Below are positions 16,058 through 16,476 of a stretch of DNA of 23,577 nucleotides, piece by piece. Origin of the DNA: a virus. Its lineage: Duplodnaviria; Heunggongvirae; Uroviricota; Caudoviricetes. The notes beneath the pieces were generated by a model. It did not search any database. It had not been told where the DNA came from and saw nothing but the letters and a program-made list of their open reading frames with translations. Within the stretch, counting starts at the first letter, position 1. Each line of letters opens with the position of its first letter. Both the position numbers and the translations under genes were made by a program. The stretch spans positions 1 to 23,577 of IMG/VR virus record IMGVR_UViG_2684622582_000006. One strand, given 5' to 3'.

Positions 16058-16476
16058 TCCATTATTTGGATTAATTCAATATTCTCGCTGTAGGAGTATA
16101 GCCGAGACCACCGAAGCCCGGAGGTGGTGAAATAAAGCCGGGCACAACACGAAGGCGCACTTCCGGTATCCATAAAGAGTCGGTCTTGTCTGTTAAATTT
16201 AAATGGTGGGAGTGCACCTCCGGTTGTAAATAACGACATTGCTGTGTGTAGTACCTGTTGGCGGCATCGGTTTAATTGCTGGCTGATGCTCGCCCTTTTT
16301 AAAGTGAATTTTGTGATGCGGTGAATGCGGCTAAGCGCACGCGGAACAGTTAAAACAGTAAAGGCAGTCTTTTTACTAGTGTAACGAGAATCCATTAGTG
16401 ATCCGGCGTTAATTGTTAACTGGTTAACGTCACCTGGAGGCACCAGGCACCGCATCAACAAAGCTCATTTGTAAAA
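16058..16476 (+). other. ORF-free ~420 bp stretch with hairpin potential at the position where Rac carries sieB; candidate ncRNA or decayed gene
   Basis: All three plus frames are interrupted by stops; several complementary segments (ACCACC...GGTGGT; CCGGAGGTG...CACCTCCGG). Confidence 0.3.

Follow-up and report, generated by a model that had tools for sequence, protein, structure and literature searches.

The window analysed here is a stretch of viral DNA of 23,577 nt, and the block of interest lies on its plus strand at 16058–16476, between two protein-coding genes. Upstream it is bordered by a ydaF-like gene of the DUF1391 type (15905–16057, plus strand; Pfam PF07151, E = 3.9e–28; 85% to K-12 ydaF). 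Downstream lies kilR, a plus-strand ORF of 73 aa (16489–16710) that was taken from the ORF list, aligns with K-12 kilR and is annotated as kil or kilR in matching E. coli genomes. A ribosome-binding site, GGAGGT (16479–16484, plus strand), stands ahead of this ORF, and a ydaE-like gene followed by recE and recT lies behind it. In the closest E. coli genome (99.2% identity) the interval between the DUF1391 gene and kil bears no annotation. Further upstream, a plus-strand row of genes at 14706–15616 encodes an HTH regulator (PF01381), a PaaA2-type antitoxin (PF21217) and a ParE toxin (PF05016); this looks like a three-gene toxin–antitoxin module of the PaaR2/PaaA2/ParE2 type in the immunity region, at the place that racR occupies in K-12 Rac. 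K-12 ydaG is missing from the stretch ahead of the ydaF-like gene (15690–15890). Elsewhere in the window, Rfam matches above threshold are the RalA antitoxin sRNA, the sok antitoxin RNA and three tRNA genes (regions 21843–22021, 6969–7150 and 1984–2295, all on the minus strand).

In the Rac prophage of K-12 the order is ydaF, sieB on the opposite strand, the non-coding RNA gene kilS (b4833) and kilR. When the window is compared with K-12 Rac by blastn, 15914–16040 matches ydaF and 16083–16712 matches K-12 1418625–1418006 (87.6% over 639 columns), with nothing aligned between; the K-12 side of the second match is the spacer from the sieB start to kilR. A junction of 42 bases (16041–16082) thus stands in place of a 551-base K-12 cassette that comprises sieB and its upstream region. 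A preliminary description of this DNA had put the whole block at the position where Rac carries sieB. That is right for the junction only, the rest being the homologue of the K-12 spacer next to sieB.

The same description had suggested a decayed sieB, and the order of genes in K-12, with sieB between ydaF and kilR, would make erosion of that gene by mutation a natural guess. So would a TTG-initiated ORF of 135 aa at 16054–16461, which the description did not mention and which is open on the minus strand, i.e. the strand of sieB. This ORF, however, has no Pfam match and is interrupted in 13 of 13 related sequences, where the longest open stretch is 88–107 aa, so that we reject it as a conserved gene. 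A tblastn search with K-12 SieB gave only noise in the window (E above 5, no hit inside the block), and a blastn search with the cassette DNA gave nothing in the block. Since the block aligns instead with K-12's own sieB–kilR intergenic spacer and neither SieB nor sieB has a match in the window, the cassette is simply absent here, and the block is a leader that K-12 also has; a pseudogene of sieB is extremely improbable.

The absence of a credible plus-strand ORF, noted earlier, is confirmed: the three plus-strand frames of the block contain 5, 13 and 10 stop codons, and of the ORFs on this strand that overlap it the longest have 26–30 aa. As RNA, the plus strand of the whole block has a folding energy of –141.3 kcal/mol, whereas 100 shuffles that preserve dinucleotides have –118.95 ± 6.05 (z = –3.69) and none of them folds as well. 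This agrees with the earlier notion of a structured RNA region on this strand; the minus strand gives z = –2.91. ARAGORN finds no tRNA- or tmRNA-like gene in 15600–16800, and a permissive Rfam scan of 15500–16800 lists only STnc100, DicF and two chance-level matches. We consider it very probable that the block is a composite of plus-strand non-coding RNA elements that forms the untranslated leader of kilR in a Rac-like prophage without sieB. Three parts can be told apart, namely a set of upstream hairpins, an sRNA and a 3′ structural domain; homology, anatomy and the conserved structure of the domain are direct observations of this analysis.

The upstream part (16084–16230) folds with z = –3.15. 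The minimum free energy fold on the plus strand consists of hairpin A (16084–16106), hairpin B (16116–16143, GCCCGG/CCGGGC) and a long imperfect hairpin C of 29 pairs (16144–16227), whose 3′ arm is the 5′ end of the sRNA described below. Hairpin A is not conserved among 15 distinct Rac-like sequences; in four of them hairpin B appears as GCCTG/CAGGC, i.e. both arms are changed and the stem is kept. Hairpin C, which includes five G-U pairs, is paired in 100% of cells, and its changes are one-sided exchanges between G-C and G-U only. The stretch 16144–16240 is nearly invariant in this set, so the structure of hairpin C and of the 5′ half of the sRNA lies beyond the reach of covariation.

The complementary segments that had been pointed out in this part do exist. 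CCGGAGGTG (16118–16126) and CACCTCCGG (16215–16223) form an exact 9-nt inverted repeat with arms 88 nt apart, and ACCACC (16107–16112) faces GGTGGT (16123–16128). The two pairings are mutually exclusive, as they overlap at 16123–16126. The proposed long-range helix between CCGGAGGTG and CACCTCCGG shows one compensatory change in the 15 sequences (locus L007), but three of its nine pairs are broken in some of them (9 of 135 cells in all), two of these pairs in four sequences, and it competes with the fully paired hairpin C. Hairpin C itself is a candidate RNase III substrate. In the Qin prophage DicF is freed from a polycistronic transcript by RNase III, which yields a 190-nt form, and by RNase E, which yields a 53-nt form (bioRxiv 10.1101/2023.04.14.536235). 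The Qin spacer likewise folds into long duplexes. A crude alignment places the RNase III site of DicF at about 16108 and not in hairpin C. By analogy with this homologous dicBF operon, it is plausible that the hairpins of the block would serve the processing of the early-left transcript.

The middle part, 16206–16300 on the plus strand (95 nt), is by its sequence an ortholog of the DicF-family sRNA KilS. All 98 nt of K-12 KilS (b4833) align with it end to end in a local alignment, the 5′ 47 nt with one mismatch. Its intrinsic terminator consists of a hairpin at 16260–16294 and a T run at 16296–16300 (terminator scan and folding; the scan itself places it at 16263–16300). Apart from the one base in the 5′ segment, the window shares with K-12 the position 5′ of kilR, the terminator stem, the T run and the upstream hairpin sequence. 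It differs in the absence of the sieB cassette upstream, in a 4-nt insertion before the terminator and in a terminator loop of 8 nt versus about 15. The 3′ end of KilS (16300) lies 188 nt upstream of the kilR ATG (16489), on the same strand. Hfq RIL-seq data led to the prediction of K-12 KilS, with yncL as a RIL-seq partner, and a northern blot confirmed it (PMC8175672); a discrete Hfq-associated RNA of about 98 nt has thus been shown in K-12 only, while the window copy is known from its sequence. Transcription of K-12 KilS from its own promoter was reported as possible (Bar et al., PMC8175672). A possible extended –10 element, TGTTAAATT, can be read on the plus strand at 16191–16199, 7 nt 5′ of the inferred KilS start; it is identical in K-12, and a two-hexamer promoter scan does not list it. 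We also considered the 5′ end of KilS (CACCUCC) as an anti-Shine-Dalgarno sequence for kilR and dropped the idea, for it makes 6 pairs in the window, only 4 in K-12, and shows no covariation.

Sequence comparison identifies KilS as a diverged relative of DicF. The terminator stems of the two RNAs are homologous and can be aligned (TTGGCGG.ATC...CCGCCCTTTTT), whereas the single-stranded seed is UGCUGUGUGUAGU in the window and UUUCUGGUGACGU in DicF. With the Rfam DicF model (RF00039, threshold 48 bits) DicF itself scores 76.7 bits, K-12 KilS 39.1 and the window 19.1 (E = 0.3, 16243–16295), so the window copy falls outside the Rfam family as delimited by that threshold. The seed by which DicF pairs with ftsZ and other targets is not retained either, identity to DicF over 16206–16259 being 31%. 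The likeness extends to the operon as a whole: in Qin and in phage Tritos loci a DUF1391 gene, a spacer, an sRNA, its terminator, a conserved domain and a division inhibitor follow each other in the same order. The dicBF operon of Qin has in common with the window the DUF1391 gene, the structured spacer, the sRNA with its homologous terminator, the conserved domain and the gene for a cell-division inhibitor; it differs in the seed, in the match to the DicF model and in having dicB downstream where the window has kilR. In a set of about 80 distinct prophage sequences, a terminator of the DicF/KilS type is found behind several different 5′ seed segments. At least five such seeds were seen upstream of the conserved domain, for example at loci L032, L081, L089 and L004. 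This suggests that sRNAs of the DicF/KilS type form a family that exchanges seeds.

The third part, 16309–16462 on the plus strand, is a pseudoknotted RNA domain of the STnc100/PasD type (Rfam RF02076, 37.3 bits, E = 3.3e–6) that ends 26 nt before the kilR start codon. Its score stays below the gathering score of 47, as do those of the copies in K-12 Qin (34.4 bits) and K-12 Rac (28.0 bits); nevertheless, the consensus helices P1, P2, P4 and P5 together with the junction and loop motifs are all present. P1 is the closing stem (16315–16323/16448–16456) and encloses P2 (16327–16331/16337–16342), here a GCGGC...GCACGC variant. Immediately 5′ of P5 lies P4 (16405–16413/16423–16431), while P5 itself (16433–16437/16443–16447, loop AGGCA) is an invariant hairpin abutting the 3′ strand of P1. 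The pseudoknot joins CAGTTAA (16347–16353), the segment just 3′ of P2, with TTAACTG (16416–16422) in the loop of P4. Between the first of these segments and P4 there is a variable insert of 51 nt (16354–16404). Within it, 16357–16402 has no 11-mer in common with any of 117 distinct flanks from retrieved loci with the exact 18-base hairpin motif (L001–L147); the insert is specific to the prophage lineage of the window. A search with the domain motif gave no further copy in the window.

Copies of the domain were gathered from phage and genome collections by two exact-match patterns for the invariant hairpin, which gave 201 distinct copies and, after reduction, 69 representatives. A collection made by exact matches carries an ascertainment bias, and the single varying pair of P5, being imposed by the two patterns, was not counted. 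Pair statistics come from 42–66 members of the family, the window included. Across 42 diverse sequences, P1 (8 pairs), P2 (5) and P5 (5) are 97.0% paired versus 82.1% in shuffles, a value that 0 of 500 shuffles reach; cells with a change on both sides number 107 versus 33, and pairing drops to 34–50% when the partners are slid against each other. Covariation is strong in P1 and P2. For P4 and the pseudoknot 61–66 diverse copies were used. Perfect P4 stems of at least 6 bp occur in 86% of 66 copies and in 15% of shuffles, with 49 distinct stems, and the pseudoknot has a mean of 6.62 contiguous pairs versus 4.79 ± 0.14 after the loops have been reassigned to other sequences, with 41 distinct pairings. 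These results support the conservation of the four helices and the pseudoknot by compensatory change across about 60 phage copies. The covariation across homologous prophages that had been proposed as a check is abundant in this 3′ domain.

Close relatives tell the same at the level of single pairs. In the K-12 Rac copy P4 changes from CGTTAA/TTAACG to CTGTAA/TTGCAG, i.e. by two compensatory pairs and one G-U, and P1 of Qin differs through G-U wobbles. G-U pairs and exchanges to wobble pairs can be accommodated only in a plus-strand RNA. Identity to the dicF–dicB spacer of Qin is mosaic: the paired parts are 93–97% identical, the insert 35% and the flanks 31–61%. The block is thus a known sRNA locus joined to a domain of a known structural family, KilS being the ortholog of an annotated K-12 sRNA and 16309–16462 belonging with STnc100 and PasD. 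It is neither a pseudogene nor the novel non-coding RNA that the preliminary description had offered as one of its readings.

The domain is met in two kinds of surroundings. In prophages of the Rac and Qin types it lies 3′ of an sRNA terminator and 5′ of a small gene, which may be kilR, dicB (as in Qin) or another small ORF, including those for hydrophobic peptides of 35–46 aa; in all these contexts the start codon follows 33–47 nt after the invariant hairpin. In at least 39 of 197 distinct copies, on the other hand, an intrinsic terminator follows within 110 nt after the domain. These are stand-alone units, with the terminator soon after P1 and, as read from the flanks, an apparent promoter of their own upstream, and they correspond to the discrete sRNAs STnc100 and PasD, which have been described as Hfq-associated trans-acting sRNAs of prophages. 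Phage contigs may hold 2–4 domains of the STnc100 type (L157, L166 and L211; e.g. L211 4464–8510), and some domain–terminator units stand in tandem, a few hundred bases apart. We had considered that stand-alone copies might form the leader behind a late promoter after gene Q, and dropped this since the copy in L152 is not directly after Q; it sits between a methylase gene and a 621-aa ORF, by eye a putative NanS-type esterase.

With STnc100 and PasD the window copy shares the P1 closing stem, the GGUGAAU junction, P2, P4, the invariant CCNGG-AGGCA-CCNGG hairpin that abuts the 3′ strand of P1, and the location in a prophage. It differs from them in its score below the family threshold, in the P2 variant, in its unique insert, in the lack of a promoter and a terminator of its own and in its fusion to the translation start region of kilR. 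Where stand-alone members have their own terminator about 20–50 nt after P1, here the kilR ribosome-binding site and ORF follow, and the terminator positions of the STnc100 model align poorly to the window. The papers on KilS, DicF, Pas and STnc100 that were consulted here make no mention of the copy of the domain in the leaders of kilR and dicB. The score just under the Rfam threshold explains why annotation pipelines miss it.

Could the block be conserved for reasons other than an RNA structure in the leader of kilR? The segments 16301–16356 and 16403–16462 are 93–97% identical between Rac-type and Qin-type loci that are otherwise diverged, and they lie at the boundary of different upstream sRNAs and different downstream genes, as would be seen if they served a function at the level of DNA or had recently been exchanged by recombination at module boundaries between lambdoid prophages. 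Under such an explanation one would not anticipate that the helices vary in sequence while their pairing is kept, yet this is what the 49 P4 stems, the 41 pseudoknot pairings and the 107 double-change cells display, and the compensated P4 of K-12 Rac and the wobble changes that suit only a plus-strand RNA point the same way. As an account of the conservation we regard it as very improbable. Recombination could, however, be partly responsible for the near-identity of the domain between the two types of prophage. Another possibility, which takes up the earlier suggestion of an antitermination element, is that the 3′ domain acts in cis as a processive antitermination RNA like put of phage HK022 and carries polymerase past the terminators farther down the early-left operon. 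Both are structured RNAs encoded in cis in the early operon of a lambdoid phage, no N gene is recognised at these loci in prophages of the Rac and Qin types, and the domain contains two adjacent hairpins (P4 and P5) and recurs several times per phage genome. There is, however, no sequence similarity or shared motif with HK022 putL, which was located via a published primer, and the plan of the helices differs from that of the putL/putR type. While put lies just after its promoter and before the terminators, the domain comes after the only terminator of the block. Moreover, terminators close behind at least 39 of 197 copies, which match discrete sRNAs, mean that polymerase that has made the domain does terminate. 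Antitermination by the domain is thus hardly to be expected.

Termination by Rho and NusG deserves somewhat more weight, though it too is unlikely as the whole explanation. In K-12, a lowered level of NusG permits read-through transcription into the otherwise silent kilR (PMC10798246, PMC5793797); transcription termination holds the gene off, and oxidative stress releases it. The block might accordingly be just an untranslated stretch on which Rho and NusG silence kilR, with RNA structures that are incidental, and the 430 nt without translation after ydaF do uncouple transcription from translation. But the block is highly structured and richer in G than in C (GC skew +0.1 to +0.26), the opposite of a typical Rho-loading site, so it would load Rho poorly, and we reject a loading site inside it. 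A C-rich candidate lies upstream instead, at about 15705–15760. In addition, the covariation reflects selection on the structure itself. We noticed a promoter-like TTGACA..CATTCT at about 15690–15718 that is followed by a very C-rich untranslated leader, CACCACCCCACCCCGCCCCAC (region 15690–15890; GC skew down to –0.45); this leader precedes the ydaF-like gene and is a candidate site for the loading of Rho. Silencing by Rho and NusG is compatible with a structured kilR leader as an additional layer, not as its replacement.

For the structured leader that we favour, we infer the following mode of action, in large part from the dicBF operon of Qin. Transcripts from the early-left promoter would be cut in the region of the upstream hairpins and thereby release KilS, which may additionally be made from its own promoter. 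Most transcription would stop at the KilS terminator, and the toxic kilR would so be kept low by attenuation. The fraction that reads through would carry the folded domain as the 5′ leader of kilR, where the domain would most likely serve as a platform that stabilises the RNA or binds a protein, perhaps Hfq, and so sets how kilR is translated or how its mRNA decays.

The products of kilR and dicB inhibit cell division strongly, and leakage of their expression kills the host or turns it into filaments. A broader and quite speculative view, to which we give a minor chance, is that the domain of about 150 nt is a portable cis-regulatory module placed before unrelated host-killing genes (kilR, dicB, small membrane peptides), where it would sense a protein or a small molecule and gate translation or mRNA stability. 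On this view STnc100 and PasD would be the sensor in stand-alone form, and KilS and DicF a single sRNA family that keeps the terminator and swaps the seed.

Far from being debris, the gene-free stretch before kilR is a conserved array of RNA elements. In it KilS appears as a seed-swapped relative of DicF, and the leaders of kilR and dicB have in common a complex, covarying, pseudoknotted domain. The domain is a testable candidate for the means by which prophages may control toxic genes after the start of transcription, and its presence there puts the STnc100/PasD family, of which little is understood, into a setting of regulation in cis.
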